Shown one piece after another: positions 8,788 to 37,511 of a DNA stretch of 44,071 nucleotides. This stretch comes from an uncultured Pirellulales bacterium. Its GTDB lineage: Bacteria > Planctomycetota > Phycisphaerae > Sedimentisphaerales > Anaerobacaceae. The notes beneath the pieces are model-generated. The model saw only the letters and a list, made by a program, of their open reading frames with translations. It was not told the DNA's origin and made no database searches. A program made the translations under genes and the position numbers. The DNA lies in assembly GCA_964524285.1 (NCBI GenBank), contig CAZGGE010000004.1, forward strand, positions 1-44,071. Reading direction: 5' to 3'. Position 1 is the stretch's first letter. Each line of letters starts with the position of its first letter.

Positions 8788-10080
8788 ATGCTTAAAACCG
8801 CTGAAGTAAATGTGAAAGAAGTAGCCCAAACGGCACAGAGGGCGTCTCGAGAACTGTCTTTTGTCGGAAGATTAAAAAAAGACTGTGCTCTGACGGTTAT
8901 GGGTAAAAAACTCGCCGGGAACAAAAATGATATATTAAAAGCGAATGAGCAGGACGTTAAAAATGCAGAAGAATCGGGTTTGCCGGCCAATCTTGTCGAC
9001 AGGCTGCTATTCACAGAAGCCAGGATTGAAAGCCGGATACGCTCGCTGGAAAAGATAGCGGCTTTGGAGGACCCCATCGGACAATCTTTTTGGCAGCGGC
9101 GAACGTTTAACGGCTTGCAGGTGTCCCGCGTTCGGGTCCCGCTGGGTGTAATATTAATGATTTACGAAGCCCGCCCGCATGTAACGGTAAATGCGGGAGC
9201 TTTTTGCATTAAATCCGGAAATGCCGCTATTTTGCGGGGCGGCTCCGAGGCAAAAACATGCAACCAGCTTCTGGGCCGACTCTGGCGGGAAAGCCTTGAA
9301 GAAGCTCAAATTAATCCGGACGCCGTCCAGGTCATTAGCGGTTCGCATAAAGACGTGGATGTTCTTTTGCAGCAGGATGAGTTTATCGACCTGGTGATTC
9401 CGAGGGGCGGGAAAGGATTGATTAAAGCGGTTGCGGATAAATCCAAAATCCCCGTTGTAAAACATTACAGCGGTGTATGTCATGTCTACGTGGATGAGGT
9501 GGATAAAGTCCAAAGTGCGATAGAAATAGCGCTGGATTCGAAATGCCTGATGCCGGAAGTATGTAATGCGATGGAGACGCTTCTGGTGTCTGAGAAAATG
9601 GAGCAGAATATCGCAAAATTTGTGCAGGCATTCAGGGAATTTGGTGTTGCCGTAAAAGGCTGTAAAAAAACACAACAGGCCGCCGACGGTGTCGAACCGG
9701 CGACGGAAGATGACTGGCGCACCGAATATCTTGACAATATTGTATCGATCAGAATGGTAAGAGACGTTGAGCATGCGATTGAACATATCAACAAGTACGG
9801 CTCACATCACACCGATTCGATTGTTACAGACAAAATCGAAAATGCAGAAAGATTTGCTCAAGCGGTTGATTCGGCGGTGGTGCTGGTTAATGCTTCAACC
9901 ATGTTTTGTGACGGCCAATCGCTCGGCATGGGCGCGGAGATTGGCATTTCGACGGACAAGTTGCATGCAAGGGGTCCGATGGGCCTCGAGGAATTGACCA
10001 GCTACAAATTCGTTATTCGCGGAAAGGGGCACATAATGGGTAAACCCCGCATGCAAACCGCAAAACGGGGGCGCATTTAA
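8788..10080 (+). CDS. proA: glutamate-5-semialdehyde dehydrogenase (gamma-glutamyl phosphate reductase)
   Basis: ProA-typical blocks: ILKANEQDV, RVPLGVILMIYEARP, GNAAILRGGSEA, SHHTDSIVT, and NASTMFCDG (catalytic Cys). AGAAGG lies 8 nt upstream of the ATG. No proB is adjacent. Confidence 0.93.
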   Translation: MLKTAEVNVKEVAQTAQRASRELSFVGRLKKDCALTVMGKKLAGNKNDILKANEQDVKNAEESGLPANLVDRLLFTEARIESRIRSLEKIAALEDPIGQSFWQRRTFNGLQVSRVRVPLGVILMIYEARPHVTVNAGAFCIKSGNAAILRGGSEAKTCNQLLGRLWRESLEEAQINPDAVQVISGSHKDVDVLLQQDEFIDLVIPRGGKGLIKAVADKSKIPVVKHYSGVCHVYVDEVDKVQSAIEIALDSKCLMPEVCNAMETLLVSEKMEQNIAKFVQAFREFGVAVKGCKKTQQAADGVEPATEDDWRTEYLDNIVSIRMVRDVEHAIEHINKYGSHHTDSIVTDKIENAERFAQAVDSAVVLVNASTMFCDGQSLGMGAEIGISTDKLHARGPMGLEELTSYKFVIRGKGHIMGKPRMQTAKRGRI

Positions 10081-10095: not shown

Positions 10096-11454
10096 ATGGA
10101 AACACTTTACGAACATCTCGTTGAAGGTTTTCAAAATATCAACATAGATGACGTGCCGGAGCAAAGACGAATAGGCCTGGAATTGAAATTCCCGCTGGTG
10201 AACCATGACGGTACGGCGGCCAGTTACGAAAAAGTTTGCCGGCTGTGGCAGTATCTCGAGTCCAAAGGCTGGCAATTCCTGAAGGACGGCATGACCAATC
10301 GTATAATCGGCGCAAAAAAACCCGGCCCGCAAAATGACACCATAGCCGGCTGTGAGACAGGGTTTTGCAAGATAGAATTCTCGATGGCTCACGTAGCAAA
10401 CCTCTTTGAGCTGGAAAAACTAATTGATGATTTGAAAATGGAGCTTAGGCCGTTCTGTGAAAAACATCACGTTCACCTGCTGGGCTACGGCATTCAGCCG
10501 GTTACACCACCTACCAGAAAGCTGCTTATGAAAAAGAGCAGAACGAGTCCGTGGGGACAGGTGTTTGGTTCTAACCGCTATGTAAGTGAGAGTGACGGAG
10601 ATGATTTTCACCTGTTTACCATAAACGCCGCGAGTCACGTGCACATCAGCGTTTCTCTGGAAGAGGCGGTAACCGCTGTCAATGTTCTCAATGGTTTTGC
10701 CGGTGCCCAGATAGGGCTGACCGCCAACTCCAATATATGGCAGGGACGCATCGACCCGTGCTACAAATGTGTAGCGGAAAAATTCTGGGACTGGTGGATA
10801 CCTGATGGAAAAAGAGTAGGTATGCCGCCCAGGCCTTTTGACGACCTTAAAGACTACTGTAAGCTCATCTCATCTCTTCGCCCGCTTTATGTAACCCGTG
10901 CCGGAAAGCCTATTGTGCTGAACAAATATAAAACGTTTTCGGAATTTATCCGAAAGGGCCGGGCCGTGGGAATCGACCCCGACGGAAAAGAAGTGTCATT
11001 TGTACCGGATAAAAACGATATAGATATGCACAGCACATGCTACTGGTATAATTCAAGAATTTCGAGATACTGTACAGTTGAAAATCGTGCAAATGACCAG
11101 CAGCCGCCGGGTGAGCTGCTTGCGGTCAGCGCTCTTACGCTTGGTTTGCTTTCTGCCCTGGAACAGGCAGAGGAAGTTCTGCAAAGATATCAATGGGCCC
11201 ATTTGCTGAAAGCAAGACAGGCCGCCTGTGAGCACGGGGTGAAAGGCAGCATAAGTAAGTTGGAGCTTGCTGAACTCACCAAAGAAATGCTGGAAGTGGC
11301 AAAGACAGGTCTGCAACGGCGGGGATTAGGGGAATTAATATATCTTGAACCATTGTTCGGGCGTTTACAGAGAAAAAGATGCCCGGCGGACCAGGCTGCG
11401 CAAATTTTCAGAGAAGGGGGAATTGACTCACTCGTAGATGCAAGACAGTTTTAA
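10096..11454 (+). CDS. carboxylate-amine ligase, glutamate-cysteine ligase family 2 (GCS2/YbdK-like)
   Basis: Blocks parallel YbdK-type ligases: IGLELKFPLV (cf. GxEEEF), ASHVHISV (cf. HVHVGV), LTANSNIWQGR (cf. SANSPFWxG), and YWYNSRISRYCTVENRANDQQP (cf. WWDVRP..TVExRxxD). It starts 16 nt after the proA stop. Confidence 0.6.
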   Translation: METLYEHLVEGFQNINIDDVPEQRRIGLELKFPLVNHDGTAASYEKVCRLWQYLESKGWQFLKDGMTNRIIGAKKPGPQNDTIAGCETGFCKIEFSMAHVANLFELEKLIDDLKMELRPFCEKHHVHLLGYGIQPVTPPTRKLLMKKSRTSPWGQVFGSNRYVSESDGDDFHLFTINAASHVHISVSLEEAVTAVNVLNGFAGAQIGLTANSNIWQGRIDPCYKCVAEKFWDWWIPDGKRVGMPPRPFDDLKDYCKLISSLRPLYVTRAGKPIVLNKYKTFSEFIRKGRAVGIDPDGKEVSFVPDKNDIDMHSTCYWYNSRISRYCTVENRANDQQPPGELLAVSALTLGLLSALEQAEEVLQRYQWAHLLKARQAACEHGVKGSISKLELAELTKEMLEVAKTGLQRRGLGELIYLEPLFGRLQRKRCPADQAAQIFREGGIDSLVDARQF

Positions 11455-11477
11455 CCATAATTATTAAGGAGATTATT

Positions 11478-12959
11478 TTGGCGAATTTGCAGGAAGAACA
11501 ATTACAACACAGGTGCCCCGGCATAATGACTTGTCCTTACAAACCGTTAAATGATTCCGATGTTAATCAGATTTCGGAGGCGGTTTTCGAGGTGTTGTCC
11601 AAATCAGGAATGCTCGTTTATTCACCCACAGCTTTTCAGGCGTTCAAAAAGGCCGGCGCCGATGTTGATTCGCAGTTGTGTACAGTAAAATTGCCACGCA
11701 GTCTGGTCGAAGATTGTATCGCATCGAATCCGTCTTCCATAACACTTTATTCAAGGGACCGCCAAAACGACGCAATCCTTGAAAAAAGCAGGGTACATTA
11801 CGGCACCGGAGGGACGGCTATTTACGTTCTGGACCCTGAAACGGGAAAACGCAGACCTTCCACAACGGGCGACGTGGCACTTAATGCCAGGATGGTAAAT
11901 CAACTTGAAAACGTGCACGTCTTTACTATCAATGTTTTCCCAAACGAAATAGAAGCCAAAGACAAGATAGATGTAAATAGATTTTTTCACTCCTTCGATA
12001 ATACCACAAAACACGTGATGGGCGGCGTTTATAATCTGGAGGGTACGCGCAGGGTTGTCCGAATGGCACAGAAAATTGCCGGCGGCGAAGAGGCCCTGCG
12101 GAAAGAACCTTTTGTCTCATTCATAACATTGATAATCAGCCCATTCAAAATTGACAAAGAGTACGGCGAAATGGCCTGTTACGTTGCCGAACGTGGTTTG
12201 CCGCTGGTAGTCCCAACCGAACCCATATGCGGAACTACCTCCCCTGTAACACTTGCCGGAAATATTCTTTCGCATATTGCGGAAACCATCGGTGGAATTG
12301 CTATGGTGCAGTGTGTCAACAAAGGTGCCCCCGGTATATGCGGAAGTGTTGGTTCAATAACCAACCTGAAGACTATGAGCCATCTGGGCGGTCCTGTAGA
12401 GCGTGCCATCATAAACGCAGCCACGGCACAAATGGCGCAGCATTTCGAAATTCCCCTTTACTCCACGGCCGGTACTTCAGATGCAAAAGAGCTTGACATC
12501 CAGGCCGCCTACGAAAGCGCTATGTCAAGTCTTCTGGTGGCAATGGCGGGGGCGAATTACATACACGACATCGCCGGCCTCATGGAGGAAGACCTTACCG
12601 TATCTTATGAAAAGCTGGTGATGGACGACGAGATACTGGGTATGTGCCAGAGGGTATTGCGTGGTATTGAAGTAAATGCCGACACGCTGGGGGTTGATTT
12701 GATAATCAAAAAAGGGCCAGGAAAGGATTTTCTCGCCGAAGACCATACAATCAAATACATGAGAAATGAATTTTTCATGCCCAGGCTCGCCAACCGCGAG
12801 AAAAGAGATCAGATGCAGCCCGGAAGTGATGCACTGTCCAGAGCTAAAAAGTACGTAAAAGAAATTATCGAAAGCAGTCGCGAATCCTGCCTGGATTCAC
12901 AGGTTCGACAAGAAATCCTCGGCGAGTTCCCGGAAATACTAAGCCTCGACGGCGGTTAA
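11478..12959 (+). CDS. MttB-superfamily (trimethylamine methyltransferase-like) protein, non-pyrrolysine member, paralog 1
   Basis: A 493-aa uninterrupted ORF with no in-frame TAG. MttB-family blocks: TKHVMGGV, EPFVSFITLIISP, EIPLYSTAGTSDAKELDIQAAYES, GANYIHDIAGLME, and LVMDDEILG. TTG start lies 6 nt after AAGGAG (11466-11471). Confidence 0.8.
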   Translation: MANLQEEQLQHRCPGIMTCPYKPLNDSDVNQISEAVFEVLSKSGMLVYSPTAFQAFKKAGADVDSQLCTVKLPRSLVEDCIASNPSSITLYSRDRQNDAILEKSRVHYGTGGTAIYVLDPETGKRRPSTTGDVALNARMVNQLENVHVFTINVFPNEIEAKDKIDVNRFFHSFDNTTKHVMGGVYNLEGTRRVVRMAQKIAGGEEALRKEPFVSFITLIISPFKIDKEYGEMACYVAERGLPLVVPTEPICGTTSPVTLAGNILSHIAETIGGIAMVQCVNKGAPGICGSVGSITNLKTMSHLGGPVERAIINAATAQMAQHFEIPLYSTAGTSDAKELDIQAAYESAMSSLLVAMAGANYIHDIAGLMEEDLTVSYEKLVMDDEILGMCQRVLRGIEVNADTLGVDLIIKKGPGKDFLAEDHTIKYMRNEFFMPRLANREKRDQMQPGSDALSRAKKYVKEIIESSRESCLDSQVRQEILGEFPEILSLDGG

Positions 12960-13068
12960 CCGTTGAGCTTATTTCACCACATTGCAATCCCGGATTTTGT
13001 GATACAGGATATTACCGGCGTATAATTATAAAATAAGCCGCAAGAACAGCTTATCAGGTCGGAGTGAT

Positions 13069-14313
13069 ATGAAAACCAAAAAGCTGAACATACCGAATCA
13101 AATGCTCTCGTCGGAAGAGGCGTGGCCTGTTTTGCACATCAAAACAGATGAAATGAATCTTCAGGCTTCAGGAGTGAAAGAGGTTGAGCTTGTAAATAAA
13201 CTGCTTTATGAAGCATATGAGCAGTTGCACGATAATAAAATTGCCGGCCAAACCTTTATAAAAGTACACATTGGAGAGCCAAAATGTGATACACGAATGA
13301 AACCACTTTATGTACAGAGCGGCGTGAAATGGCTTAAAAACAATGGAGCGACCGGCGTGGTCATTGGCGACACTACCGTCGCCTACACCGGAGCCAGAGG
13401 TCATAAAAGCAATCCGCCGGGCAATTGCAACGAGTATACAGGACTCGCAAGAAGACATAAATGGTGGAGCGATTCCGATGCCAATGCCAGGTTTGTCGTC
13501 CTTGACAGGCCTTCAACATCTCTGAAAGACGTTTTTTCATTTACACAGCAGGAAAAACGAATCGGAGTAGAAGGCATAAGTCGATTCAATGATTTTTATC
13601 TTGCCGGCGGTTTTTCAGCCGCCGACTTCATTCTGAACCACGCGCATCTTACGCTTCACGGGCTTGCAGGTGTCGCCGGATGTGTCAAAAGCATCGCAAT
13701 GGGTTGCTCGAGCCTTGCCGGAAAACTCAGGATGCACCAGTCACTACTGCCAAAATTCGATGCCCAACTTTGTGTTTTGTGTGGACGGTGCGTACAACAG
13801 TGTCCCGAAGATGCGCTTCACCTCGATAAAGAACGTGGATGTCCGGTCGTAGACCCTCAGAAGTGTATAGGCTGCGGTGAATGTGAAGCGGTTTGCGCAA
13901 CCGGCAAGGGAGCCGTTCACCTCGAAGGAAAAGAAATTACCGACTGGCAGAGAGGACAGGACACCCTTTCCGTGCGCATGGCAGATTACACCATCGGTCT
14001 TATGAACGAAAGATGGAAAAATGTAATTCACGTCCTGCACATGTATTCGATAACCGAACGCTGCGATTGCATAGATATGAAACAAAGTCCAATGATTGAA
14101 AAAGACCTCGGATTCCTCGCAGGAAAAAATCCGTTTGCAGTAGACAAACTGGGAGCAAAAATACTGATGGAACAAATGCAAAAAGAAGGGCAGGATGTTA
14201 CCGACCCTCTTCTGTATACAGCGGAAAAAACGTCCCGGTATGTTGCAGAAAACTACGGCATAATTACCGACGTACCCCTGATAACCAAATCGCCTTCTCA
14301 AAATGCCCCTTGA
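13069..14313 (+). CDS. DUF362-domain protein with an embedded 2x[4Fe-4S] ferredoxin module
   Basis: Two cluster motifs: CVLCGRCVQQCP (C235/238/241/245) and CIGCGECEAVC (C266/269/272/276), at nt 13771-13896. The flanking sequence (IKVHIGEP, VVIGDTTV, NHAHLTLHGLAG) is DUF362-like. Confidence 0.75.
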   Translation: MKTKKLNIPNQMLSSEEAWPVLHIKTDEMNLQASGVKEVELVNKLLYEAYEQLHDNKIAGQTFIKVHIGEPKCDTRMKPLYVQSGVKWLKNNGATGVVIGDTTVAYTGARGHKSNPPGNCNEYTGLARRHKWWSDSDANARFVVLDRPSTSLKDVFSFTQQEKRIGVEGISRFNDFYLAGGFSAADFILNHAHLTLHGLAGVAGCVKSIAMGCSSLAGKLRMHQSLLPKFDAQLCVLCGRCVQQCPEDALHLDKERGCPVVDPQKCIGCGECEAVCATGKGAVHLEGKEITDWQRGQDTLSVRMADYTIGLMNERWKNVIHVLHMYSITERCDCIDMKQSPMIEKDLGFLAGKNPFAVDKLGAKILMEQMQKEGQDVTDPLLYTAEKTSRYVAENYGIITDVPLITKSPSQNAP

Positions 14314-14370
14314 AAAAGGCTTTAGAATTTACTATATATCCTTACTCTGACGCATAATCAGGAACTAATT

Positions 14371-15885
14371 ATGGTATTAAAAACCGAAAAAACTGTTGAG
14401 GAGAAACCCGTGCAATTAGAGCAACGCCAGGGAATAGTGGTAACCCCGCATTGTCGTCTCAGTGATGAGCAGGTAAAACTGATTGACGAAACATCAAGAG
14501 ATATTTTGGAAAATCCGGGCCTGCTTTGTTATAATGCAGAAGCTGCCAGGCTGTTCAAAAAGGCTGGGGCAAAAGTTGAAGACCAGGACAAATGCGTCCG
14601 CGTTCGCCTGCCTTCGGAATTGATTGATGCCGCTCTCAAAACTGCTCCTTCGAAGGTCGTACTCGGCGCACGCAAGGAAGAGAATCGTCTGGTTCTCGAT
14701 GCTTACGAGCCGAGGGTCCGCTTTGGCAGCGGCTCCGAAACAAACGTCTGGCTCGATGTAGACTGCTCCGACAAAACACCGCTTTTCCAGAAAAAAAAGG
14801 GGACAATCGCTCATTTGTGTAATGCAGCACACCTTTGTGATAACCTTGAAAACCTCGATTTCTTCATACGCTGCGTTAACATTCGGGATGACAACGTTAC
14901 CGAGAACAACAAGGATGTGAACAAATTTCTCGCAAGCCTGAATAACATTACAAAACACGTCCAGGGAGGCCTGACGAAACTGGAGGCTCTGGACGACGTA
15001 ATACGCATTGGACGAATCATAGCCGGCGGTAAAGAAGCGTTCGAGAAAGAACCTGTCCTTTCCTTCATTACCTGTGTTGTAAAAAGCCCGTTACAGGTTG
15101 TGGACGACACCGCTTCAAAATTAATAGCTATTGCCAGACACAACGCCCCCGTGGTCGTATCGAGTTCCCCCATGGGCGGAGCCACCGCACCCTTTGACGA
15201 GTTCGGAATGGTGGCTCAAATTAACGCAGAGCTTCTGGCTGGCGTAACTCTTAATCAGCTTGCCCGCGAAGGAGCGCCGGTATTGTATGGCGCCGTTCCT
15301 GTGAGAACCCGCCTTGATAACCTGAACGATATGTATGGAGCACCGGAATTTGTTCACTACAATCTTGATTGTGCTCAAATGGCAAGATTTTACGGCCTGC
15401 CCTGCTATTCTACCGCCGGTGTCGGTGATACCGAAGTGCCCGGCATACAGGCCACTGTTGAAAAACTGATTACTTACGCAGGTGTATCACGCGGGGGTGC
15501 TCAGTATATCCATTACGCTTTCGGACTGCTCGAACGGACGAACACTTTTTGCCCCGTACAGGCCGTCATGGATAACGAGCATATCGGTATTGTCAAGAAC
15601 ATGCTGAAGGACGCTGATGTTTCCTCGGGTCTGAAGAAAAAAATCCTCGATATGGTTCGTGAAGTCATGCAGACCGACCACAAGACATACATGTATCACT
15701 TACCTCTGCCCACTCGTGAAGCGGTTTATACAAGCTACCCGCTGGAAAATGAACGGGGCGCCATATATGCAGCAAATGAAAAATATGAGAAAATAATGAA
15801 AATGCCGCGGAATCAGCTAAGCAAACAGTTAGCCGAAAAAATAAAGACCGAAATTGAGGGCATCCTGCCTGAAACACTTCAATAG
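14371..15885 (+). CDS. MttB-superfamily protein, non-pyrrolysine member, paralog 2
   Basis: A 504-aa uninterrupted ORF. It shares family blocks with paralog 1 (TKHVQGGL, EPVLSFITCVVKSP, GLPCYSTAGVGDTEVPGIQATVEK, GAQYIHYAFGLLE, AVMDNEHIG) but is otherwise strongly diverged. Confidence 0.8.
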   Translation: MVLKTEKTVEEKPVQLEQRQGIVVTPHCRLSDEQVKLIDETSRDILENPGLLCYNAEAARLFKKAGAKVEDQDKCVRVRLPSELIDAALKTAPSKVVLGARKEENRLVLDAYEPRVRFGSGSETNVWLDVDCSDKTPLFQKKKGTIAHLCNAAHLCDNLENLDFFIRCVNIRDDNVTENNKDVNKFLASLNNITKHVQGGLTKLEALDDVIRIGRIIAGGKEAFEKEPVLSFITCVVKSPLQVVDDTASKLIAIARHNAPVVVSSSPMGGATAPFDEFGMVAQINAELLAGVTLNQLAREGAPVLYGAVPVRTRLDNLNDMYGAPEFVHYNLDCAQMARFYGLPCYSTAGVGDTEVPGIQATVEKLITYAGVSRGGAQYIHYAFGLLERTNTFCPVQAVMDNEHIGIVKNMLKDADVSSGLKKKILDMVREVMQTDHKTYMYHLPLPTREAVYTSYPLENERGAIYAANEKYEKIMKMPRNQLSKQLAEKIKTEIEGILPETLQ

Positions 15886-15930
15886 CTGTAAAAACCTTGA
15901 CTAACCGGTTTATATGAGAGGAGTAAATTT

Positions 15931-17220
15931 ATGCCGGAATCTATGGACAATGAACAAATGGCCGCTTACAGCGAGGCGGCAAAAAGCGGACTCTACGCAA
16001 AAAGGTCCGGACTCATCGGAAAGTACGACAATGTAAGGAAGTACTGGGAAGACGAAATCTCGCGTAAAACTTTTTATCCGTACCTTCGAAAGCTCATAGA
16101 AAAAAGCCAGTCACGAATGCACCGTCTGAGAATTCTCGACCTGGGCTGTGGCAGCGCCGACGGCTACGAACTCCTGTGTGGAATAAGACAGAGAGACCCC
16201 GGACTAAAGGATTCGGAAGTAGACCTGCTCACTCCGGATGTGCTCGGTGTATATAAAGGCGTGGACCTCAACAAGGATTTAATGGAACAGGCAAAACAAA
16301 TATACGGGCACAATCCCAAAATGATTTTCGAACAGGGAGATTTCACCAGGGGACTGCCCGGAAAAAAGAAAGAAAAACCCTGGGATTTGTATTTTACTTC
16401 GTACGGAACCTGCTCACATCACAATACTGATGAAACCTTCGTCAAAATGATGGTGGATATCGCCGAGCACGTTAGCGATTACGCAATTGTCGTCTGTGAC
16501 TGGGTCGGACGTTTCTCTTATGAATGGCAGAGCCTGTGGACAAACGATTTTGATAAAGTCAAGAACATGGATTATGTCGTTTCTTATATCTATCCCAAAG
16601 AGAAACGCGAAGCACAAAGGGACAAGCTCCAGCATCTTACATTACGGCTGGTGAGCAGAAAAGAAGCAGAGGCTATGATAAGCCGGGCAAACAAAGAATC
16701 CGGCGCGGATATTAAAACCCTTAATTATTTCGACCGCTCCGTTTTCACGGGCCGGCACATGGACACCGCAGAATATAACCCACACGCACAACCTGTAAGG
16801 CAGGCCGTTAACTCCCTGCATGAAATAAACCTGAGAACCGATTTGGGGAGCTTGCTTATAAATTACGTACCAAAGAATGGTTTCGAGGAACTTAATGAAT
16901 ACTTTGGCCATCTCCAAATGTGCTGGAATCACCTTGTTCATTATACCATCGAGCTTTTACACAAATATGACGAAAAAAGAGAAACTTTAGCCGATGATTT
17001 GCCCGAAATCTCCGCCTCTTATCCGCCACCGCTCCGTACCATGATGGAGCGAATGCGCCGCGTCATCGAAGGAGTAGGCTGGCTTGGTATAGGTCTGCCG
17101 CGCGAAAACATCATAGAACCGCAGTTAGGTTATGCACTGCGATACCTCATCAGTAACCTTCAAAAGGGACGCGGCTGTGCACACGGCCTCGTGGGCATAT
17201 TTGAAATTGACAAAACTTAG
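15931..17220 (+). CDS. class I SAM-dependent methyltransferase with ~220-aa C-terminal extension of unknown function
   Basis: Motif I is RILDLGCGSADGYE, post-I is YKGVDLNKDLMEQA, and the motif II/III region is WDLYFTSYGTCSH. GAGGAG RBS lies upstream of the ATG. Confidence 0.75.
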   Translation: MPESMDNEQMAAYSEAAKSGLYAKRSGLIGKYDNVRKYWEDEISRKTFYPYLRKLIEKSQSRMHRLRILDLGCGSADGYELLCGIRQRDPGLKDSEVDLLTPDVLGVYKGVDLNKDLMEQAKQIYGHNPKMIFEQGDFTRGLPGKKKEKPWDLYFTSYGTCSHHNTDETFVKMMVDIAEHVSDYAIVVCDWVGRFSYEWQSLWTNDFDKVKNMDYVVSYIYPKEKREAQRDKLQHLTLRLVSRKEAEAMISRANKESGADIKTLNYFDRSVFTGRHMDTAEYNPHAQPVRQAVNSLHEINLRTDLGSLLINYVPKNGFEELNEYFGHLQMCWNHLVHYTIELLHKYDEKRETLADDLPEISASYPPPLRTMMERMRRVIEGVGWLGIGLPRENIIEPQLGYALRYLISNLQKGRGCAHGLVGIFEIDKT

Positions 17221-17258
17221 GTGCTGCAAGGGTATAGAATACCGGAGTATTGAAGAAA

Positions 17259-17768
17259 ATGCGAGCGGCATACTCAGATGCAAGAATCCATATTATCTTG
17301 TTAGGTTCTCGTCGTGATGAGCTGCTGCAGCAGGCGGCAGCTTTGCTGGCGCGTTATTGTCTGCCTTTTGAGTTGTCTGATGATATTTACGATTCCGTCG
17401 CTCGAATTGCTTGTTGCCGGGACGATTGCGAAGTCGTTGTGATAGCAAGGCATGAATTACTTGCCGGCGAGAAGGGGTATCTGATTCGCAAAGCCAGGCG
17501 GAAAGCCCTGACGTGCTGTTGTATTTACAGCCATGCCTTTCATAATTGTTTCATTCGTGAACAATTGCTTTCGGGAAGTGGTATTTTTTATGTACAGACC
17601 CCGGAGGAGATTGCCGAAGTTATCCATAAAAGACTTGCTTTCGTTACCGCCGACTCAATTTCCGGGGATGCCGGCAGGCGGGGCGACGACCTTATAACCG
17701 AAGGATTCCGTGCGAGTCAGGAGGAAATAGATGCCCTTCTGGGAGCAAGTAGTGATGACAAAGGGTGA
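17259..17768 (+). CDS. hypothetical protein with a possible pseudo-receiver fold and a C-terminal SQEEIDALL peptide
   Basis: The alternating beta/alpha pattern (IHIILLG...LPFELSDD...EVVVIARHEL) looks REC-like, but I see no acidic pocket or phospho-acceptor Asp. The C-terminal motif ASQEEIDALLG lies at nt 17712-17744. Start choice (ATG 17259 versus TTG 17250) is uncertain. Confidence 0.5.
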   Translation: MRAAYSDARIHIILLGSRRDELLQQAAALLARYCLPFELSDDIYDSVARIACCRDDCEVVVIARHELLAGEKGYLIRKARRKALTCCCIYSHAFHNCFIREQLLSGSGIFYVQTPEEIAEVIHKRLAFVTADSISGDAGRRGDDLITEGFRASQEEIDALLGASSDDKG

Positions 17769-18783
17769 AAGCGAAAAGTCAGGGGTAATGGTAGTTGGTA
17801 ATGTGGAGCGGGCATTCAGCGACGTTCAGGTACGGGGCCAATTTCCCTTTGAACATTATGATAGAGTTGTGGATGCAATCGACGCCGCCGGCAGGAACAA
17901 ATACCGGTTAATTGGCGTGGTGATGTCTGGAACTGCGGCTAATTTTGTCAAGGCGCTTAAATCATTGCGAAAAGTTTCACAAGCCGCCAGGATTGTTCTT
18001 CTTGCTGAGATGTGGGAAGAAGCGGAGGCTGTTCGCCTTACGCGGAGCGGGCGAAACGGCAGTGCTATGGCGGATGAATACCTGATGTGTCCGACAAAGA
18101 TAAGCAGTCTTGAAGGACTGCCGGTTTATAACGGCAAACCACAGGCAGGGGAAGATAAGAAAGTCGCGGATTTCATGGACGAGCAGCGAATAACTGAGCT
18201 GGAGAAGCTTGCCACCACCGATGAGCTTACGGGATTGAAAAACAGACGCTACATCTGGGAATTTGCCAGACAGATAATCAAACGTGCGCAGGAAATGGAG
18301 GAGCGTGTAACACTTTTGATTTTCGACATAGACGACTTTAAACATTATAATGATCTTTACGGTCACTCGGCGGGCGACCAGATACTCAAGCAGGCTGCGG
18401 TACTTATCCAGCGGTGCTGTCGTGCCCATGATGTAGTGGGCAGGATAGGTGGTGATGAATTTGCCGTTATCTTCTGGCAGCATCCCTCAAGGTCGCCCGG
18501 TGATGCGGAGAGGCGGTCGGCATCGGCGGAGCCTCCAAAAGAAGCAATATTTATCGCCAAAAGATTCCGCAGCGAATTAAGCAAGGCGGAATTTGATTTG
18601 CTCGGCCCGGAAGGTAAGGGTGTATTGAGTATAAGCGGAGGGCTGGCAGGTTTTCCGAGGGATGCCCGTAACATTAGTGAGCTTGTAGAGCAGGCCGATT
18701 CTGCACTATTACAGGCAAAAAGGAGCGGCAAAAACAGGATATATCTTGTCGGCACGCCACAGGCAGATATTGAGAATATGTAA
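17731..18783 (+). CDS. diguanylate cyclase (GGDEF) with a degenerate receiver-like N-terminal domain
   Basis: The GGDEF active site is intact (RIGGDEFAVIF). RxxD I-site (RAHD) lies 5 residues upstream, and DELTGLKNRR is present. ATG 17731 lies 6 nt after AGGAGG (17719-17724) and overlaps the previous ORF by 38 nt. Confidence 0.88.
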   Translation: MPFWEQVVMTKGESEKSGVMVVGNVERAFSDVQVRGQFPFEHYDRVVDAIDAAGRNKYRLIGVVMSGTAANFVKALKSLRKVSQAARIVLLAEMWEEAEAVRLTRSGRNGSAMADEYLMCPTKISSLEGLPVYNGKPQAGEDKKVADFMDEQRITELEKLATTDELTGLKNRRYIWEFARQIIKRAQEMEERVTLLIFDIDDFKHYNDLYGHSAGDQILKQAAVLIQRCCRAHDVVGRIGGDEFAVIFWQHPSRSPGDAERRSASAEPPKEAIFIAKRFRSELSKAEFDLLGPEGKGVLSISGGLAGFPRDARNISELVEQADSALLQAKRSGKNRIYLVGTPQADIENM

Positions 18784-23713: not shown

Positions 23714-26143
23714 GTGGGCAAATATATTTGCATACACGGGCATTTTTATCAGCCGCCCCGGGAAAATCCCTGGCTTGAAGATTTGGAATTGCAGGATTCC
23801 GCTTATCCTTATCACGACTGGAATACAAGGATTACCGATGAGTGCTACCGGCAAAATGCTGCTTCACGAATACTCCGGCCCGACCGTAAGATAGTAGACA
23901 TCGTTAACAATTATTCGAGTATCAGCTTCGATTTCGGCCCCACACTTCTTTACTGGCTGGAGACTCATGCAGGCGATGTCTACGAGAAAATTCTCGAGGC
24001 GGACAGAATCGGAAGCGAAAAGTTTTCCGGTCACGGTCCTGCTCTGGCACTGCCTTATAATCACATGATTCTTCCACTGGCCAACTCCAGGGATAAACAA
24101 ACACAGGTCATCTGGGGCATCAGGGACTTTAATATGCGGTTCGGCAGAAAGCCGGAAGGAATGTGGCTGCCCGAAACTGCGGTGGATTTGCCTACACTTG
24201 AGGTGCTCGCAGAGCAGGGCATAAATTTCACTATTCTCAGTCCACATCAGGCTGAAAAGATTCGCGAGAGGGGTTCAAAGAAATGGAAACAGGTCGATGA
24301 GCACTCATTGGACACGACTGCGGCTTATCTTTGTGAGTTGCCCTCCGGCAGGAAGATAAGCCTGTTCTTTTATGACGGCGGTCTTTCGCATGACGTTGCA
24401 TACGGAGGATTACTTCACAGCGGCGAGAACTTTGCCAACCGCCTGCTCAGTGCTTTTCCGCAAGGCGACAACTCAGCCGACCTGGTTCATATTGCCACGG
24501 ACGGAGAGTCATTCGGTCATCATCACCGCCATGGTGATATGGCACTGGCTTACTGTTTGCATCACATCAGGAGTAACAAGTTAGCGGAGATAACTATCTA
24601 TGCGGAGTATCTTGAAAAGTTCCCACCTGAGTACGAAGTTCAGATTCGAGAGAACAGTTCCTGGAGCTGTGTGCACGGCGTCGAGCGGTGGAGAAGCAAT
24701 TGCGGCTGTTGTGCGGACTCGGCAAGGTGCGGCGAGCAGCAATGGAGGGCGCCGCTGCGAAAGGCGATGGACTGGTTGAGGGACAAGCTGGCTGAAGTTT
24801 ACCAAACACAAATGGAAAGTTTCACCAAAGAGCCATGGAAAGTGAGAAACGAATACATCGAAGTTATAAACGAACGTTCGAAAGAAAACGTGAACGGTTT
24901 TTTGAAAGGTGCGGCCGAAAGAAAGCTGAATCAAGATGAAAAGATAAAATTTTTGAAGTTGATGGAAATGCAGCGCAACGCCATGTTAATGCACACAAGT
25001 TGTGGATGGTTTTTTGAAAGTATGTGGGGCATAGAAACGGTGCAGATTTTGCAGTATGCAGTCCGCGCGATGCAACTTTGCAATGAAGTTCACAAGGTCA
25101 ATTTTGAGCAGGAATTCAAGGAGATACTGGCGGAGGCCCAAATCAACTCAGGTTCTTTTTCAAACGGACGCCAGGTCTATGAGGCATACGTGCAGCCGGC
25201 ACAAATCGACCTTAACAGAGTCGCGGCGCATCTTGCATTAAGCTCGGTTTTCGAGAAATATGAAGGAGCAGAGGTCAAGGTTTATTGTTACCTCGCTGAG
25301 ATGCAGGACTTTCAAAGGGATGAAGCCGGCGTCCAGAGCCTGACCACGGCCAAAACAACTGTTCGCTCGCAAATCACGCTGGAAAGCAGTGAAATCGACT
25401 TTGCAGCTCTTTATCTGGGGGATCAGAATCTGTTCGCTGCGCTGGATGCTCACAACTCGGATGAAAAATTCGTCAAGCTGCGAGAAGGCTTGAGAAACGC
25501 TTTTGGAAAGGGAGATACCAATGAGGTGATACGTATGATGAACAAGTCGTTTGAGGTTCGCAACTATTCGCTTTCAGACCTTTTCAAGGATGAGCAGCGG
25601 CGGATTATGAATGAGGTGCTTACGAATACCTGGGAGGAGATAGAAAGCTCGTTTCGTCGCATATACGAACACAATTACGCCCTGATGCTCATGATAAGAA
25701 ACATGAATATGCCGCTTCCAAAAGCACTATCGACTCCCTGCGAGTTCGTGCTGAATAAAGATATAGAAAGGCAGATTCAGGCCGAGCACACCGACCTTAA
25801 GCAACTACACAGCCTCGCTGAAGAAGCTGCCAAATTAAGTCTTGACCTTGACCGTCAGACACTAAGGTTCCACGGTGCTCGTAAAATAAACGGATTTATG
25901 AAGAAGCTGGAAAAAAAACCCGAAGATACGGAACTGCTTTTGTTAATTGAAAAAACACTTGCGATACTGAAGGAAATAACGCCGGATATGGATTTGCAGA
26001 GTTCGCAGAACGTTTTTTTTACGCTTGGCCGGGCGAAATACGCTGAAATGAAAAGTAAAGCCGAGTCCGGAAAAAAGAAAGCAGCCAGGTGGGTTACTTA
26101 CTTTGAGAATCTGGCTCAGCATCTGGGTTTGGCGGTCCCGTGA
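23714..26143 (+). CDS. glycoside hydrolase family 57 protein with long C-terminal (DUF3536-like) region
   Basis: N-terminus ICIHGHFYQPPRENPW is the GH57 hallmark. WLPETAV and TDGESFGHH are also present. GTG start lies 6 nt after AAGGAGG (23701-23707). Confidence 0.85.
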   Translation: MGKYICIHGHFYQPPRENPWLEDLELQDSAYPYHDWNTRITDECYRQNAASRILRPDRKIVDIVNNYSSISFDFGPTLLYWLETHAGDVYEKILEADRIGSEKFSGHGPALALPYNHMILPLANSRDKQTQVIWGIRDFNMRFGRKPEGMWLPETAVDLPTLEVLAEQGINFTILSPHQAEKIRERGSKKWKQVDEHSLDTTAAYLCELPSGRKISLFFYDGGLSHDVAYGGLLHSGENFANRLLSAFPQGDNSADLVHIATDGESFGHHHRHGDMALAYCLHHIRSNKLAEITIYAEYLEKFPPEYEVQIRENSSWSCVHGVERWRSNCGCCADSARCGEQQWRAPLRKAMDWLRDKLAEVYQTQMESFTKEPWKVRNEYIEVINERSKENVNGFLKGAAERKLNQDEKIKFLKLMEMQRNAMLMHTSCGWFFESMWGIETVQILQYAVRAMQLCNEVHKVNFEQEFKEILAEAQINSGSFSNGRQVYEAYVQPAQIDLNRVAAHLALSSVFEKYEGAEVKVYCYLAEMQDFQRDEAGVQSLTTAKTTVRSQITLESSEIDFAALYLGDQNLFAALDAHNSDEKFVKLREGLRNAFGKGDTNEVIRMMNKSFEVRNYSLSDLFKDEQRRIMNEVLTNTWEEIESSFRRIYEHNYALMLMIRNMNMPLPKALSTPCEFVLNKDIERQIQAEHTDLKQLHSLAEEAAKLSLDLDRQTLRFHGARKINGFMKKLEKKPEDTELLLLIEKTLAILKEITPDMDLQSSQNVFFTLGRAKYAEMKSKAESGKKKAARWVTYFENLAQHLGLAVP

Positions 26144-26169
26144 TTGACCGAGATTAAAGGGATTTTTGA

Positions 26170-27666
26170 ATGTTAAGCAGTCGTAGTAGTGGAATATTGT
26201 TGCATATAAGCTCGTTGCCCGGTGAATATGGTATTGGCGACTTCGGGGCGCCTGCCGATAAATTCGTTAAATTTCTAAAGAATGCGGGGCAAACCTGCTG
26301 GCAGATGCTGCCGCTCAATTACATTACGGCCGGAAATCGATTTTCTCCTTACAAATGTTTGTCCGCTTTTGCGGGAAATCCTTTGTTTGTAAGTCCACAA
26401 TTGCTTCGGCGGGACGGCCTGCTGTCCAAAAAACACCTCGAAGAAAGACCCAAATTCAGCAGGGATTACACCGACTACAAAAAGGTCGAATCATATAAAT
26501 CAACGCTTTTCGATATTGCCTTTGCCAATTTCAGCAAAACCAAAAAACCTGTTGATTATGCTGCTTTTGTAAAAAGAAACAGTTTCTGGCTGGAGGAATT
26601 TTCGCTATTTCTTGCATTGAAGCAGCGCTTCAAAAATCGAATATGGTGCGACTGGCCTGTCGATATAAGGGATAGAAAAAAACAAGCTTTGAAAGAAGCA
26701 GGGAAAGATTTGGACAGGCAAATAAAGAAAGAGAAGTTTTTACAGTATATTTTTTATAAGCAATACATTTCTTTGAAAAGGCGATGCAACCGTAAAGGGA
26801 TACAAATCTTCGGCGACCTCCCCATCTATGTGGCATACGACAGTGCCGACGTGTGGTCGGCTCCGGAAATGTTCAAACTGGCAAGCGACAAAAAACCTGA
26901 GTATATCGCCGGTGTTCCTCCGGATTATTTCAGCCGAACAGGCCAGTTATGGGGTAATCCGGTTTATAACTGGAAACGTCTAAAGGCAAGGGGTTATCAA
27001 TGGTGGATACGCCGCCTTGAACATAATTTGCAGCTTTTCGATATTTTGCGTATCGACCATTTTCGGGGATTTGTGGCTTATTGGCAAGTGCCCGCCGGCA
27101 GCAAAACCGCTACCAAAGGCCGGTGGATTAAAGCACCCGCAGAGGATTTCTTTAATACGGTGTTAAAGCAGATGCCTTCAGCACAAATCGTTGCCGAGGA
27201 CCTCGGACAGATTACGCCGGATGTCAGAGAAATTATAAATAAGTTCAACTTTCCGTGCATGAAGGTTTTGCATTTTGCTTTTGACGGCGAGCCAAAGAAG
27301 AATACTCATCTCCCTCATAATCACGTCAAAAACTGTGTGGTTTATACCGGCACTCACGATAACAATACTACAAGGGGTTGGTTCAAAAAAGAACTTAATC
27401 GGAAACAAAAACAACGACTGTCGGATTATCTCGGCCGAAAGCCCTCTGAGAAAAATGTTCACCGCCGGATGATACGGCTTGCCATGTCGTCTGTGGCAAA
27501 CCTTGTAATAATCCCAATGCAGGATATCCTCGGGTTGGACGGGAAAACGCGGATGAACAATCCTGCACTTACACGGGGAAACTGGCGATACCGAATGTTA
27601 AGACTGCCCGACAGCGGCGTTATTAAGGATTTGAAAAACATAACATTTACCTATGGGCGAAGTTGA
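26170..27666 (+). CDS. malQ: 4-alpha-glucanotransferase (amylomaltase, GH77)
   Basis: SGILLHISSLPGEYGIGDFG, LRIDHFRGF, VAEDLG, and YTGTHDNNT are GH77 catalytic-region blocks. Confidence 0.92.
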   Translation: MLSSRSSGILLHISSLPGEYGIGDFGAPADKFVKFLKNAGQTCWQMLPLNYITAGNRFSPYKCLSAFAGNPLFVSPQLLRRDGLLSKKHLEERPKFSRDYTDYKKVESYKSTLFDIAFANFSKTKKPVDYAAFVKRNSFWLEEFSLFLALKQRFKNRIWCDWPVDIRDRKKQALKEAGKDLDRQIKKEKFLQYIFYKQYISLKRRCNRKGIQIFGDLPIYVAYDSADVWSAPEMFKLASDKKPEYIAGVPPDYFSRTGQLWGNPVYNWKRLKARGYQWWIRRLEHNLQLFDILRIDHFRGFVAYWQVPAGSKTATKGRWIKAPAEDFFNTVLKQMPSAQIVAEDLGQITPDVREIINKFNFPCMKVLHFAFDGEPKKNTHLPHNHVKNCVVYTGTHDNNTTRGWFKKELNRKQKQRLSDYLGRKPSEKNVHRRMIRLAMSSVANLVIIPMQDILGLDGKTRMNNPALTRGNWRYRMLRLPDSGVIKDLKNITFTYGRS

Positions 27667-27674
27667 GCATCGTT

Positions 27675-30287: not shown

Positions 30288-31865
30288 TTAATCCTTTTTC
30301 CTGCGATATCGTTTATAATCTATGTTCAGTTCCTTGACTTTATATCTGATAATTCTCGGGGTAGTGTTGAGGTCGCGAGCAACTGCCGCCAGATTACCGT
30401 TACAGCGTTTCAAGGCATCGATAATGAGATCCCTTTCGAACAGGTCGGTTTTTTCCTTCAGTGAGCCTGCTGCTATCGTGCCCGAAGCATCCGATGTCTG
30501 AAGCGTAGGAGGTAAGTGATGGCCTCGAATAACTCCTTCGCCGCTGAGTATAACGGCCCTCTCGATGCAGTTTTCAAGCTCACGCACATTGCCCGGCCAA
30601 TGATATGAAACCATCATGTTTATGGCGGGCGTGCTTATCCGTTTGATATTCTTACCCATTTTTTGTGAGTAATGCTCCACAAAAAAATCTGCCAGCAACA
30701 GAATGTCATCCTTACGCTCACGTAACGGAGGCAGAAATATCGGAAATACATTGATACGGTAGTAAAAGTCCTCCCGAAATGTGCCGGCATCGACGTTCTT
30801 CTCGAGGTTTCTATTCGTTGCAGCAATAATTCTTGTGCTCGTTCTTAGGGTACGGTTGCTTCCGACACGCTGGAATTCTTTTTCCTGCAGAACCCTCAAA
30901 AGCCTTACCTGGGTAGCTGTGGAAAAGTCGCCGATTTCATCAAGAAAAATTGTTCCGTTGTCAGCTTCTTCGAGTCGGCCTTGACGCGTTTGTGTAGCTC
31001 CGGTAAAAGCACCTTTTTCATGGCCGAATAGTTCGCTTTCAATAAGGCTTTCGTTCAAAGCCGCACAACTGACCTTGACAAAAGGCCCGTCAGCCCTCGA
31101 ACTTGAGTAGTGAATAGCATGTGCAACCAATTCCTTTCCGGTACCCGATTCGCCCCGAATGAGAACAGTTGTATCACCGGCTGCCACCTGATGAATCTGC
31201 CTGTATACTTCGCGCATCAGGCTTGAATTACCTATTATGTTCTCCGGACGGAATTTGCCTTCCAGTTCATGTCGCAGTCGTACATTCTCATCTTCTAACA
31301 TGTGCCGCTCTATTTCAGCTTCGCGTCGAGACCGCAAATCATTTGCAATCATGCTGGAAATGATGCTCATGACACGCATTTCATCCTCCAGGGAAGCCGA
31401 TTCGTCGAAAGGCCTGTCAACCGAGATTGTGCCGATTACATCTTTGCCCATGGAAATTGGCACACAAATAAAACTCATCTCTTCCTTGGTAACATTCCAT
31501 CTCTCGAAGCGGTTTAAGAAAAGCGGCTCCTGAGATATTTTCGGCACAATCATTGGCTTTCCGGATTGCATAACCTTGCCGGTAACCCCTTCACCAATTC
31601 GGTATGTTATTGTGCGGCTCTGTTGCTCAGAAAGGTTGTGAGCGGCTTCGATTCTTATCTGGTCTCCGTCAGGGGCAAGAAGTGTTATCGTACCTCTTTT
31701 CAAGCCCAGGTCATCATCAAGTACATCCAGAACCTGACCCAGAGCTTCTTTTTGGTTGCCTCCGGAACCCAGAATCTGGCTCACCTTATAAAAACTTTCA
31801 AGCTGACGCAAGTGGCCTGATTTATACGCAAGAACCGGATTCCAGATTGGCGGTTTTTTGAACAT
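30288..31865 (-). CDS. sigma54-dependent transcriptional activator, GAF-AAA+-HTH (NifA-type architecture, no receiver domain)
   Basis: Walker A is GESGTGKE, the sigma54-contact loop is EKGAFTGA, and Walker B is IFLDEIGD. The C-terminal Fis-type HTH is [24 protein letters not shown]. The N-terminal ~170 aa are GAF-like. AGGAG RBS lies upstream. Confidence 0.9.
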
Positions 31866-32072
31866 TACAAAAGCTCCTGATATTAAATAGCCTACATTAT
31901 TGTAACATATAACGATAGGGCAACAAACTCATTTCTACTAATAAAGAACATAAGCCATATTTCTTTTCCATAAGTATATATATTGCAAATAGTTACGATT
32001 GTCAAAATTCTCCAATATCAATTTCAAGGATGGCCTTGTTGAATAAACAAAAAGCAAAACATGCGACATAAA

Positions 32073-32090
32073 TGTTACATTGCAATGACA
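32073..32090. promoter_or_regulatory. candidate enhancer (UAS) for the sigma54 activator: TGT-N12-ACA containing a perfect 10-bp palindrome CATTGCAATG
   Basis: Palindrome at 32078-32087, about 100 bp upstream of the -24/-12 element. Related GTTACAT copies lie at 32092-32098 and, inverted, at 31901-31908. The function is inferred only. Confidence 0.3.
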
Positions 32091-32183
32091 AGTTACATAT
32101 TTGTCTTATGCTAACTGGCATTTTTATCTGCTGCAAAATCTATAAGTCATTGGAGAACAATTACTTATAAACATTTTTCATCT

Positions 32184-37504: not shown

Positions 37505-37511
37505 TGAGCCG

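Follow-up and report, generated by a model that had tools for sequence, protein, structure and literature searches.

The 44,071-nucleotide stretch analyzed here (contig CAZGGE010000004.1, positions 1 to 44,071, hereafter the window), from an uncultured bacterium of the Phycisphaerae, carries a run of six genes that begins with proA, includes two MttB paralogs, and ends with a gene for an S-adenosylmethionine (SAM)-dependent methyltransferase (MT). Our leading interpretation, a tentative one drawn from sequence comparisons and a structural model, is that these genes could represent, in the Phycisphaerae, a widespread osmolyte cluster that moves horizontally and in which corrinoid- and SAM-dependent methylations would be combined in the synthesis of an N-methylated betaine-type solute. 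More broadly, the probable role of the cluster in sediment bacteria is to make or recycle a methylated solute that protects against salt. The six genes are as follows.

8788 to 10080, + strand: proA, glutamate-5-semialdehyde dehydrogenase (gamma-glutamyl phosphate reductase); NCBIfam NF001221
10096 to 11454, + strand: GCS2-like ATP-dependent carboxylate-amine ligase, 452 aa; PF04107 and TIGR01436 alignment
11478 to 12959, + strand: MttB-1, core gene, TTG start; PF06253
13069 to 14313, + strand: DUF362 protein with an inserted 2x[4Fe-4S] ferredoxin domain, 414 aa, accessory gene; PF04015
14371 to 15885, + strand: MttB-2, core gene, the older of the two paralogs; PF06253
15931 to 17220, + strand: MT, SAM-dependent methyltransferase, 429 aa, signature gene of the cluster; motif I and predicted class I fold

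The genes lie on a single strand with successive gaps of 15, 23, 109, 57, and 45 nt. The open reading frame (ORF) positions and operon-like layout, all on the + strand, given in a preliminary description made from the sequence alone were reproduced exactly, and its family assignments were upheld by Pfam and NCBIfam profile searches with a strength that varied from gene to gene. No in-frame stop was found in either MttB paralog, in agreement with the non-pyrrolysine (non-Pyl) status assigned to both.

The MttB-1, MttB-2, and MT core

Relatives of MT numbered 1573 in a 90%-clustered protein collection, and the best 120 of the 1573 shared 65 to 72% identity across different phyla. Among 185,579 species genomes (one genome per species), MT relatives were identified in 214 from about ten phyla, mostly Planctomycetota, with Spirochaetota, Latescibacterota, Hydrogenedentota, Anaerolineales, Kiritimatiellae, Lentisphaerales, Fibrobacterota, and others also represented; many of these genomes came from soda-lake, salt-lake, marine-sediment, Black Sea, or sulfidic-spring samples. 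From 1.8 billion representative proteins, a profile search returned 319 MT family clusters, distant members included, and a metagenome scan using distant MT sequences added 80 more loci. Genes in related loci (L numbers below) were called from tblastn matches and simple ORF finding. Across 80 genome loci examined by tblastn, MttB-1, MttB-2, and MT were adjacent in nearly every locus with enough flanking sequence, in that order or, in spirochaetes, in the order MttB-2, MT, MttB-1, with 60 to 77% identity to the window proteins and intergenic gaps with a median of about 20 nt. The fixed core of the cluster consists of these three genes. The arrangement recurs in about 160 independent loci, on which ground chance adjacency was rejected; the gene neighborhood survey that the preliminary description had proposed as a check thus found the adjacency conserved.

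A betaine-type ABC importer was found directly 3′ of MT in most relatives by ORF clustering and Pfam scans of neighboring genes (ABC_tran in 58, BPD_transp_1 in 50, and an OpuAC binding protein in 47 of 81 loci). This OpuAC-type importer is the strongest support for the earlier suggestion of a methylated amine or compatible solute, which fits the family well. Less frequent neighbors were MarC, MarR, MscS, and a short-chain dehydrogenase. A sucrose-phosphate-synthase-like glycosyltransferase, a further sign of an osmoadaptation neighborhood, was located near the cluster in four genomes (L026, at L026:2458-3819, and L047, L083, and L085). No downstream catabolic or one-carbon (C1) oxidation genes were conserved near the cluster. 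No betaine ABC importer was found in the window, where the importer position of relatives is occupied by a 172-aa ORF and a GGDEF diguanylate cyclase gene (17250 to 18783, + strand) that overlap by 38 nt. For the 172-aa ORF, neither a family match nor a homolog in the related loci was found; a relationship to the small receiver-like proteins encoded 5′ of proA in relatives was considered and rejected, no homology being found.

MttB-1 matched PF06253 with 318 bits (residues 13 to 480) and MttB-2 with 212 bits (residues 27 to 437), against a cutoff of 25, and the two proteins are 31% identical. Orthologs of MttB-1 shared 62 to 77% identity in close loci and 41 to 46% in the deep clade, and those of MttB-2 60 to 73% and 47 to 53%, respectively. 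Both scored under the cutoff of 525 bits for true MttB (TIGR02369; 404 bits for MttB-1 and 267 for MttB-2). The Pyl position is taken by Thr333 (ACT) in MttB-1 and Val351 in MttB-2, with no in-frame UAG; among the orthologs it was Thr in 62 and Met in 17 of 83 MttB-1 sequences and Val in 96 of 101 MttB-2 sequences. Hidden pyrrolysine was rejected, as the two in-frame stops among the 101 MttB-2 orthologs are sporadic and off the Pyl site. An Rfam PYLIS_3 match was identified inside MttB-1 (12474 to 12573, + strand; 42 bits against a gathering score of 38), beginning on the Thr333 ACT codon aligned to the UAG of the model, with several modeled pairs noncanonical. It most likely stems from conservation of coding sequence shared with true mttB and not from a functional insertion element.

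Substrate-binding residues of the glycine betaine methyltransferase MtgB (PMC13080624) were mapped, via alignments of 9yce and 7xcl, onto the ortholog alignments of MttB-1 (83 sequences) and MttB-2 (101 sequences). In MtgB, R312 binds the acid group of the substrate, and the aromatic pair Y97/F356 together with H348 surrounds glycine betaine (PMC13080624). R312 was conserved in all five characterized enzymes (MtgB, MtcB, MtpB, MtyB, and MthB), and its equivalents, Tyr328 in MttB-1 and Tyr346 in MttB-2, were each invariant among the orthologs. In MttB-1, Y97 corresponds to T110 within an invariant GTGG loop, F356 to D372, and H348 to D364 beside H363, the pair His363-Asp364 being invariant in the 83 orthologs. 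In MttB-2, Tyr346, Cys345, His381, and Glu123 were invariant or nearly so. Because the conserved acid-binding Arg is replaced by Tyr, both paralogs fall outside all characterized quaternary-amine clades; membership in a characterized substrate clade, which the preliminary description had named as part of an outcome that would count against it, was therefore not observed for either. Judged by sequence, both are locally like true MttB minus the pyrrolysine, and the acidic or His-Asp residues together with the lack of a carboxylate-binding Arg would fit protonated, nonquaternary amine substrates. The cluster defines two new, ancient MttB subfamilies.

Several loci (L126:7379-11994, L127:16120-19057, L125, L137, and L140) carry a second set of more distant pterin methyltransferase, corrinoid, and MttB homologs (30 to 35% identical) just downstream, and the MttB copies of this set (L126 and L127 group) likewise have Tyr or Trp at the MtgB R312 position. 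A canonical Arg-type MttB acting beside the cluster as a separate catabolic enzyme was rejected, as the extra copies in L026, L126, and L127 carry Tyr or Trp there.

The match of MT to Methyltransf_25 (20.5 bits) was below the Pfam cutoff of 27, and its motif I (ILDLGCGSADG) was invariant. AlphaFold2 (AF2) modeling from a 49-sequence alignment predicted a confident class I fold (mean predicted local distance difference test score, 92.2), with an N-terminal class I Rossmann domain and a helical C-terminal domain of ∼200 aa. Foldseek matched the model with a probability of 1.0 to many class I methyltransferases, with only the N-terminal ∼230 residues aligning. The proteins matched are SAM methyltransferases of small molecules, and amine N-methyltransferases are frequent among them (CcbJ, CalS10, TylM1, NmbA, human GNMT, and Methanohalophilus GSMT), and the resemblance to 5hij and 1r74 is generic fold similarity only (template modeling score of about 0.5 on the target). 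Foldseek gave no structural match for the C-terminal ∼200 residues. At the sequence level no PDB chain was matched by MT at an E value of ≤0.9, and homology to characterized GSMT/SDMT was not detected.

The contexts of MT extend beyond the core. P0156 and P0160 are AsnB-MT fusions with the N-terminal Cys intact (Cys2), of which P0156 passes the AsnB equivalog threshold, and their loci carry the importer without MttB. Further contexts are AsnB-MT-importer, proA-GCS2-MT-importer (L110), and OpuAC-MT alone, and a Usp-MT fusion also exists. Since such loci occur without MttB, MT with a feeder enzyme and an importer forms a self-sufficient module, and the MttB/corrinoid module is an addition in clades with 42 to 72% MT identity. 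Variants with zero, one (L104, L105, and L107), or two MttB genes make up a graded series. In the one-gene variant, ordered proA-GCS2-MttB-1-DUF362-MT-importer-MscS without MttB-2, MT is strongly divergent (37 to 40% identical), and the other genes are 50 to 76% identical to those of the window. A called protein, P0172, joins a B12-binding fragment to MT. Its locus (L086:4910-8164) is a degraded cluster with MttB pieces of 90 and 248 aa, a B12-binding fragment reading into a truncated MT, and a GCS2 remnant, adjoined by an S-adenosylhomocysteine hydrolase gene; P0172 was for this reason downgraded as proof of a corrinoid-binding MT.

Corrinoid partners and feeder modules

The window was searched by Pfam scans of all ORFs of ≥150 aa, by a six-frame regular-expression search for DxHxxG..SxL..GG, and by tblastn with proteins of a relative (corrinoid, Pterin_bind, Met_synt_B12, and URO-D), and none of these searches revealed a gene of the corrinoid, pterin-binding, RamA-like, MetH-activation, or URO-D type. 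Corrinoid, pterin, and activase genes were likewise not found within 10 kb of either side of the cluster in 78 of 80 close-clade genome loci. A B12-motif search identified a canonical 207-aa corrinoid protein directly 3′ of MttB-1 in L031 (Sedimentisphaerales) and L048, and in the deep clade the machinery is more complete. The operon of L087/L088 reads MarR, Met_synt_B12, MttB, Pterin_bind, MttB, corrinoid protein, MT, ABC_tran, BPD_transp_1, and OpuAC, its MttB genes being orthologous to MttB-1 (45% identical) and MttB-2 (48%). Met_synt_B12 is the SAM-dependent reactivation domain of MetH. A complete operon of this type was present in at least 13 of the 80 loci from the metagenome scan, usually with AsnB after it. 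About 15 truncated metagenome contigs carried corrinoid-MT-AsnB, and L115 carried proA-GCS2-MttB-1-MttB-2-corrinoid-MT. Altogether, L031, L048, L087, and about 30 metagenome loci have a cognate corrinoid gene (B12-binding_2 plus B12-binding) within their orthologous cluster. PF00809 and PF02965 proteins were found within the operon in at least 13 deep-clade loci, and no RamA-type gene was seen. The pterin protein of these relatives is closest to Desulfitobacterium MT2 and MeTr/AcsE, and their corrinoid protein to Moorella and Desulfitobacterium corrinoid proteins and MttC.

Thus, the earlier statement that the cluster has no corrinoid partner holds for the window and its near clade but not for the family (L031, L048, and the deep-clade operons). 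Because the clusters of the deep clade and of L031 and L048 encode corrinoid machinery, the system, judged by the operons of its relatives, appears to be corrinoid dependent, and the clade of the window would have moved or lost its corrinoid, pterin, and reactivation genes. A precedent is offered by Ruegeria pomeroyi, in which the genes are scattered and MtgC and MtgD serve both the MttB-family protein MtgB and a split methionine synthase (PMC12478193).

The DUF362 protein matched PF04015 with 72.6 bits and has two Fer4 motifs, at residues 228 to 250 and 258 to 280. DUF362 has no known function and belongs to the same Pfam clan as the LarA N-terminal domain (PMC11770544). The gene was present in 11 of 22 GCS2-type loci with long flanks and in none of the remaining long-flank loci, and DUF362/2x[4Fe-4S] and Met_synt_B12 co-occurred in none of the fetched loci. 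The stretch between MttB-1 and DUF362, the only long gap of the cluster, contains a terminator-like hairpin overlapping the MttB-1 stop codon (12945 to 12967, + strand) and a promoter-like site with 10 of 12 matches (12997 to 13026, + strand); this region (12945 to 13026) may be an internal regulatory point. The same gap is the site of the corrinoid protein gene in L031 and L048, where the corrinoid protein and a VTT/DedA membrane protein are inserted between MttB-1 and DUF362 (L031:2326-8445 and L048:4612-6912); L031 has a further insert encoding an NMO-like flavin mononucleotide oxidoreductase and a DUF547 protein after its DUF362.

The core is accompanied, on one side or the other, by one of two alternative feeder modules. 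In the window, ProA passed both of its models (NF001221 equivalog, 530 bits against a cutoff of 289; TIGR00407, 436 against 317). The ligase matched PF04107 (GCS2) at 21.6 bits against a cutoff of 21, a superfamily-level match only; its alignment with a distant relative, plant-type glutamate-cysteine ligase, covers the full length (TIGR01436 residues 22 to 442; PDB 6gmo/2gwc, E value, 3e−7), and it lies under the equivalog threshold for that enzyme (48 bits against 463). Its family is small (430 matches, with the best 120 of the 430 at least 53% identical) and tight, and hence dedicated to the cluster; a role as a general substitute for ProB was judged unlikely for a small family confined to the cluster. 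proA was located immediately 5′ of the GCS2-like gene in 27 of 28 GCS2-type genome loci, with a median gap of 20 nt. The other feeder is an asparagine synthase, AsnB, and the two were never found together. Among genome loci, proA with GCS2 was present in 28 (about a third) and AsnB in 30, with no co-occurrence; among the 34 loci with long flanks, GCS2 was present in 22, AsnB in 10, and neither in 2; and among all fetched loci, ∼35 carried proA with GCS2 and ∼70 AsnB, with no overlap. The AsnB portion of P0156 is nearest to true AsnB (566 bits, against 278 for the N-acetylglutaminylglutamine amide [NAGGN] amidotransferase model). The two locus types interleave in a neighbor-joining MT tree (calculated without support values), and no alignment column in MT, MttB-1, or MttB-2 separates them; different substrates for the two types were rejected on these grounds.

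We infer that the same step or need is served by either of two ATP-dependent enzymes, AsnB or the GCS2-like ligase, both of which activate the side-chain carboxylate of an acidic amino acid. The constant company of ProA with the ligase is not explained by such a shared step. Two different AsnB-family genes per locus (∼60 to 74% and ∼30 to 35% identical to the common type) were present in L127:10479-14522, L161:2667-5727, L017, L025, and L030, which hints at two distinct amidation steps. The linkage to proA to which the preliminary description drew attention is real but optional, being limited to about a third of the loci. Its proposal of a glutamate- or proline-derived methylated amine survives in the general form of a methylated amine or compatible solute; the glutamate or proline specificity is not secure, because asparagine synthase replaces proA and GCS2 elsewhere and never stands alongside them.

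Proposed hybrid synthesis and competing explanations

In the pathway that we tentatively favor, a feeder (here ProA and the GCS2-like ligase) would raise the supply of an amino acid skeleton or neutralize its side-chain carboxylate. A corrinoid protein encoded elsewhere in the genome would then take a methyl group from methyl-tetrahydrofolate (methyl-THF), and MttB-1 and MttB-2, possibly as a heterodimer working in the methylating direction, would carry out the first two N-methylations, taking a primary amine to a secondary and then to a tertiary one. The uphill final quaternization would fall to the SAM-dependent MT, and leaked solute would be recaptured by the importer, which is absent from the window. 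The DUF362/2x[4Fe-4S] protein could supply low-potential electrons that keep the corrinoid in the Co(I) state. In its strictest form, in which the MttB proteins run biosynthetically, with a corrinoid loaded from methyl-THF and two Pyl-free paralogs methylating a primary and then a secondary amine before the SAM enzyme finishes, the proposal is a shade more doubtful still. Methyl groups on protonated amines lie roughly 20 kJ/mol below methanol and methyl-pterin, as judged from the free energies of methanogenesis, so by analogy the early methylations would be downhill from methyl-THF. Quaternary amines support acetogenic growth and so sit above methyl-THF, for which reason the last methylation would need SAM.

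In favor of hybrid synthesis, every conserved part has a job, two anciently split MttB paralogs with one MT match three successive methylations, and the numbers of MttB genes per locus grade from zero to two. The conserved linkage of the three core genes and the corrinoid machinery within the operons of relatives also count in its favor. The osmolyte context (importer, MarC, MscS, MarR, the Usp-MT fusion, and the sucrose-phosphate-synthase-like neighbor) points the same way, as do the biosynthetic setting of the AsnB-MT fusions and minimal MttB-free feeder-MT-importer modules and the lack of conserved catabolic or C1-oxidation genes nearby. The predicted fold of MT resembles amine N-methyltransferases, including glycine and sarcosine N-methyltransferases, and the acidic or His-Asp residues that the paralogs carry in the absence of the acid-binding Arg are consistent with an amine acceptor of the kind proposed. 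Several points weigh against hybrid synthesis. To our knowledge, no MttB-family enzyme is anabolic or acts on nonquaternary amines without pyrrolysine. The corrinoid and pterin proteins of the relatives are nearest to catabolic-type systems of anaerobes, an importer beside MttB genes is also the classic catabolic layout, and the clade of the window has no in-cluster corrinoid, pterin, or reactivation genes. The common chemistry of the two feeder modules has no explanation, and the thermodynamic argument rests on tabulated free energies of methanogenesis.

The closest competitor, which we rate only slightly below hybrid synthesis, is that the importer takes up a betaine and that MttB-1 and MttB-2 demethylate one or two quaternary amines onto the corrinoid, from which the pterin methyltransferase would pass the methyl group to THF for C1 metabolism or for methionine and SAM, with MT and the feeder forming a separate, co-located synthesis module. 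Demethylation is the only activity demonstrated for non-Pyl MttB proteins (PMC13080624; PMC12478193), and the separation of MttB-family genes from their corrinoid partner in Ruegeria (PMC12478193) would explain the gap in the window. The deep-clade operon, with its full set of first methyltransferase (MT1), corrinoid, second methyltransferase (MT2), and reactivation genes beside an OpuAC importer, and the Desulfitobacterium/Moorella affinity of its catabolic-type corrinoid and pterin components are what demethylation would predict. However, demethylation offers no reason for the near-obligate linkage of MttB-1, MttB-2, and MT and places synthesis and breakdown in one operon, and no conserved genes for product breakdown or C1 oxidation lie nearby. 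Both paralogs also lack the Arg by which the characterized quaternary-amine enzymes bind the acid group, and a second demethylation, from a tertiary amine onto THF, would be uphill.

A role for MT inside the corrinoid cycle, as a SAM-dependent corrinoid loader or reductive reactivator of the MetH-activation kind, with the DUF362 Fe-S protein as electron donor and no small-molecule methyltransferase activity, appears improbable. It would account for the corrinoid gene immediately 5′ of MT in the deep clade, for the joined B12-binding fragment of P0172, and for the clade of the window showing neither a RamA-type activase nor a Met_synt_B12 gene in the fetched loci. However, MT occurs with an importer and AsnB in loci that hold no MttB or corrinoid gene, it is fused to AsnB, and its fold matches small-molecule N-methyltransferases; the deep-clade operons hold a separate Met_synt_B12 domain besides MT, and the P0172 arrangement sits in the visibly degraded L086.

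Slightly less credible again is the corrinoid-independent MttB fold of the preliminary description, in which the tasks of corrinoid protein, second methyltransferase, and activase would be taken over by MT or by the DUF362 Fe-S protein. The lack of these genes in the 44-kb window and near 78 of the 80 close-clade loci is what such a fold would predict, yet the deep-clade orthologs of MttB-1 and MttB-2 are encoded in one operon together with the corrinoid protein, the pterin methyltransferase, and the reactivation domain, and two close relatives retain the corrinoid gene. Because the length and domains of MT are the same in both clades, no new corrinoid-replacing domain has been gained.

The weakest proposal, that ProA and the ligase make a pyrroline-carboxylate (P5C) amide as a free or attached stand-in for pyrrolysine that would activate methylamines with Pyl-less MttB, draws on P5C being the unmethylated core of the pyrrolysine ring and on the true-MttB motif that MttB-1 keeps around the Pyl site, along with its PYLIS_3 match, but is very hard to sustain when the feeders track MT and not MttB (proA-GCS2-MT and AsnB-MT modules exist without MttB), a near-canonical asparagine synthase substitutes for the feeder in about 70 loci, and the PYLIS match, with its several noncanonical pairs, is explained by coding-sequence conservation.

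Surroundings, significance, and relation to known systems

Asd, encoded beside the cluster, shares 80 to 83% identity with proteins of metagenome-assembled genomes of Sedimentisphaerales and other Phycisphaerae, which identifies the host as a planctomycete of the Phycisphaerae. Further along the window, an alpha-glucan block (23714 to 30284) encodes a GH57/DUF3536 protein, a 4-alpha-glucanotransferase, and, on the opposite strand, an 869-aa PPDK_N-domain protein. It is followed by a nitrogen-assimilation neighborhood (30288 to 43574) with a sigma-54 activator carrying a GAF domain, a porin-like Gcw_chp protein, an ammonium transporter, glutamine synthetase, a 416-aa protein resembling class II aminoacyl-tRNA synthetases (possibly AsnA-like), and the large and small subunits of glutamate synthase. 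A 641-aa ORF antisense to the small subunit (42069 to 43994, − strand) had no family match and is probably a shadow ORF.

Non-Pyl MttB homologs are among the most abundant uncharacterized methyltransferase genes of sediments and oceans. We know of only a handful with known substrates, all catabolic. About ten phyla characteristic of saline, anoxic sediments share the fixed association of the MttB pair with a SAM methyltransferase, an importer for betaines, and enzymes that supply amino acids. If hybrid synthesis is correct, it would be the first corrinoid/folate-driven betaine route and would spare energy-limited anaerobic halophiles two of the three SAM otherwise needed for each molecule; its product may be an undescribed solute, such as a betaine of the asparagine or glutamine type. 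Estimates of what organic osmolytes cost anaerobic halophiles in energy would then need revision, osmoadaptation would acquire a new B12 requirement, and the MttB fold a new catalytic direction. If the enzymes are instead catabolic, the cluster would be an unrecognized sink for methylated amines competing with methanogenesis. On either interpretation, the locus provides candidate genes for a solute in Phycisphaerae, Brocadiia, Spirochaetota, and others.

Literature searches turned up no description of the cluster, the MT family, or the MttB paralog pair, nor any paper on the combination, in line with the earlier impression that it was undescribed. Its parts belong to known families and its relatives hold a standard three-component corrinoid system; an anabolic use of MttB would be novel. 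With MtgB/MtgC/MtgA of Desulfitobacterium hafniense and MtcB/MtpB/MtyB/MthB of Eubacterium limosum, the cluster has in common a Pyl-free PF06253 TIM-barrel protein, and its relatives share the logic of MT1, corrinoid, and pterin-binding MT2 beside a betaine transporter. In contrast to these systems, the similarity to MtgB is only about 208 bits, with Y97, R312, H348, and F356 becoming T, Y, D, and D in MttB-1; there are two divergent paralogs, a SAM methyltransferase, and AsnB or ProA with GCS2; and reactivation in the relatives is of the MetH type and not the RamA type. Also related is the MtgBCD(E) split methionine synthase and glycine betaine demethylase of Ruegeria pomeroyi (PMC12478193), which likewise combines MttB proteins, a shared corrinoid, a bidirectional pterin methyltransferase, and MetH-like reactivation. 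SAM-dependent MT, AsnB, ProA/GCS2, and DUF362 are not reported for it, its hosts are aerobic marine Proteobacteria, and no homocysteine methyltransferase domain was seen in the present clusters.

The Pyl-dependent trimethylamine methyltransferase MttB, with MttC, of Methanosarcina barkeri (PDB 7xcl/7xcn) shares with the cluster the Pyl-site motif P-x-Y-x-x-G-x-[O/T/V]-x-D and the G-T/S-G loop, and MttB-1 has its PYLIS_3 match at the Pyl-equivalent codon, whereas here there is no UAG (Thr333/Val351), the hosts are bacterial, and the partners are different. Osmolyte pathways are known to recruit paralogs of amino acid enzymes, as with AsnO in NAGGN synthesis and ProJ/ProA/ProH in the proline osmoadaptation of Bacillus subtilis. 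Like these, the cluster places a dedicated asparagine-synthase-family enzyme or a glutamate-to-semialdehyde route inside an osmolyte locus, but its AsnB is nearest to true AsnB, and the partner of ProA is a GCS2-like ligase and not a ProB/ProJ kinase. Finally, SAM-only synthesis of glycine betaine by GSMT/SDMT (for instance, Methanohalophilus portucalensis GSMT; PDB 5hij) resembles the cluster in the fold of the MT Rossmann domain and in its osmolyte context, and the MT-only variants (AsnB-MT with importer) look like such a route. Unlike GSMT, MT has no PDB match at the sequence level and carries about 200 extra C-terminal residues; it is linked to AsnB or ProA/GCS2 in place of glycine metabolism and in most loci is joined to a corrinoid system.

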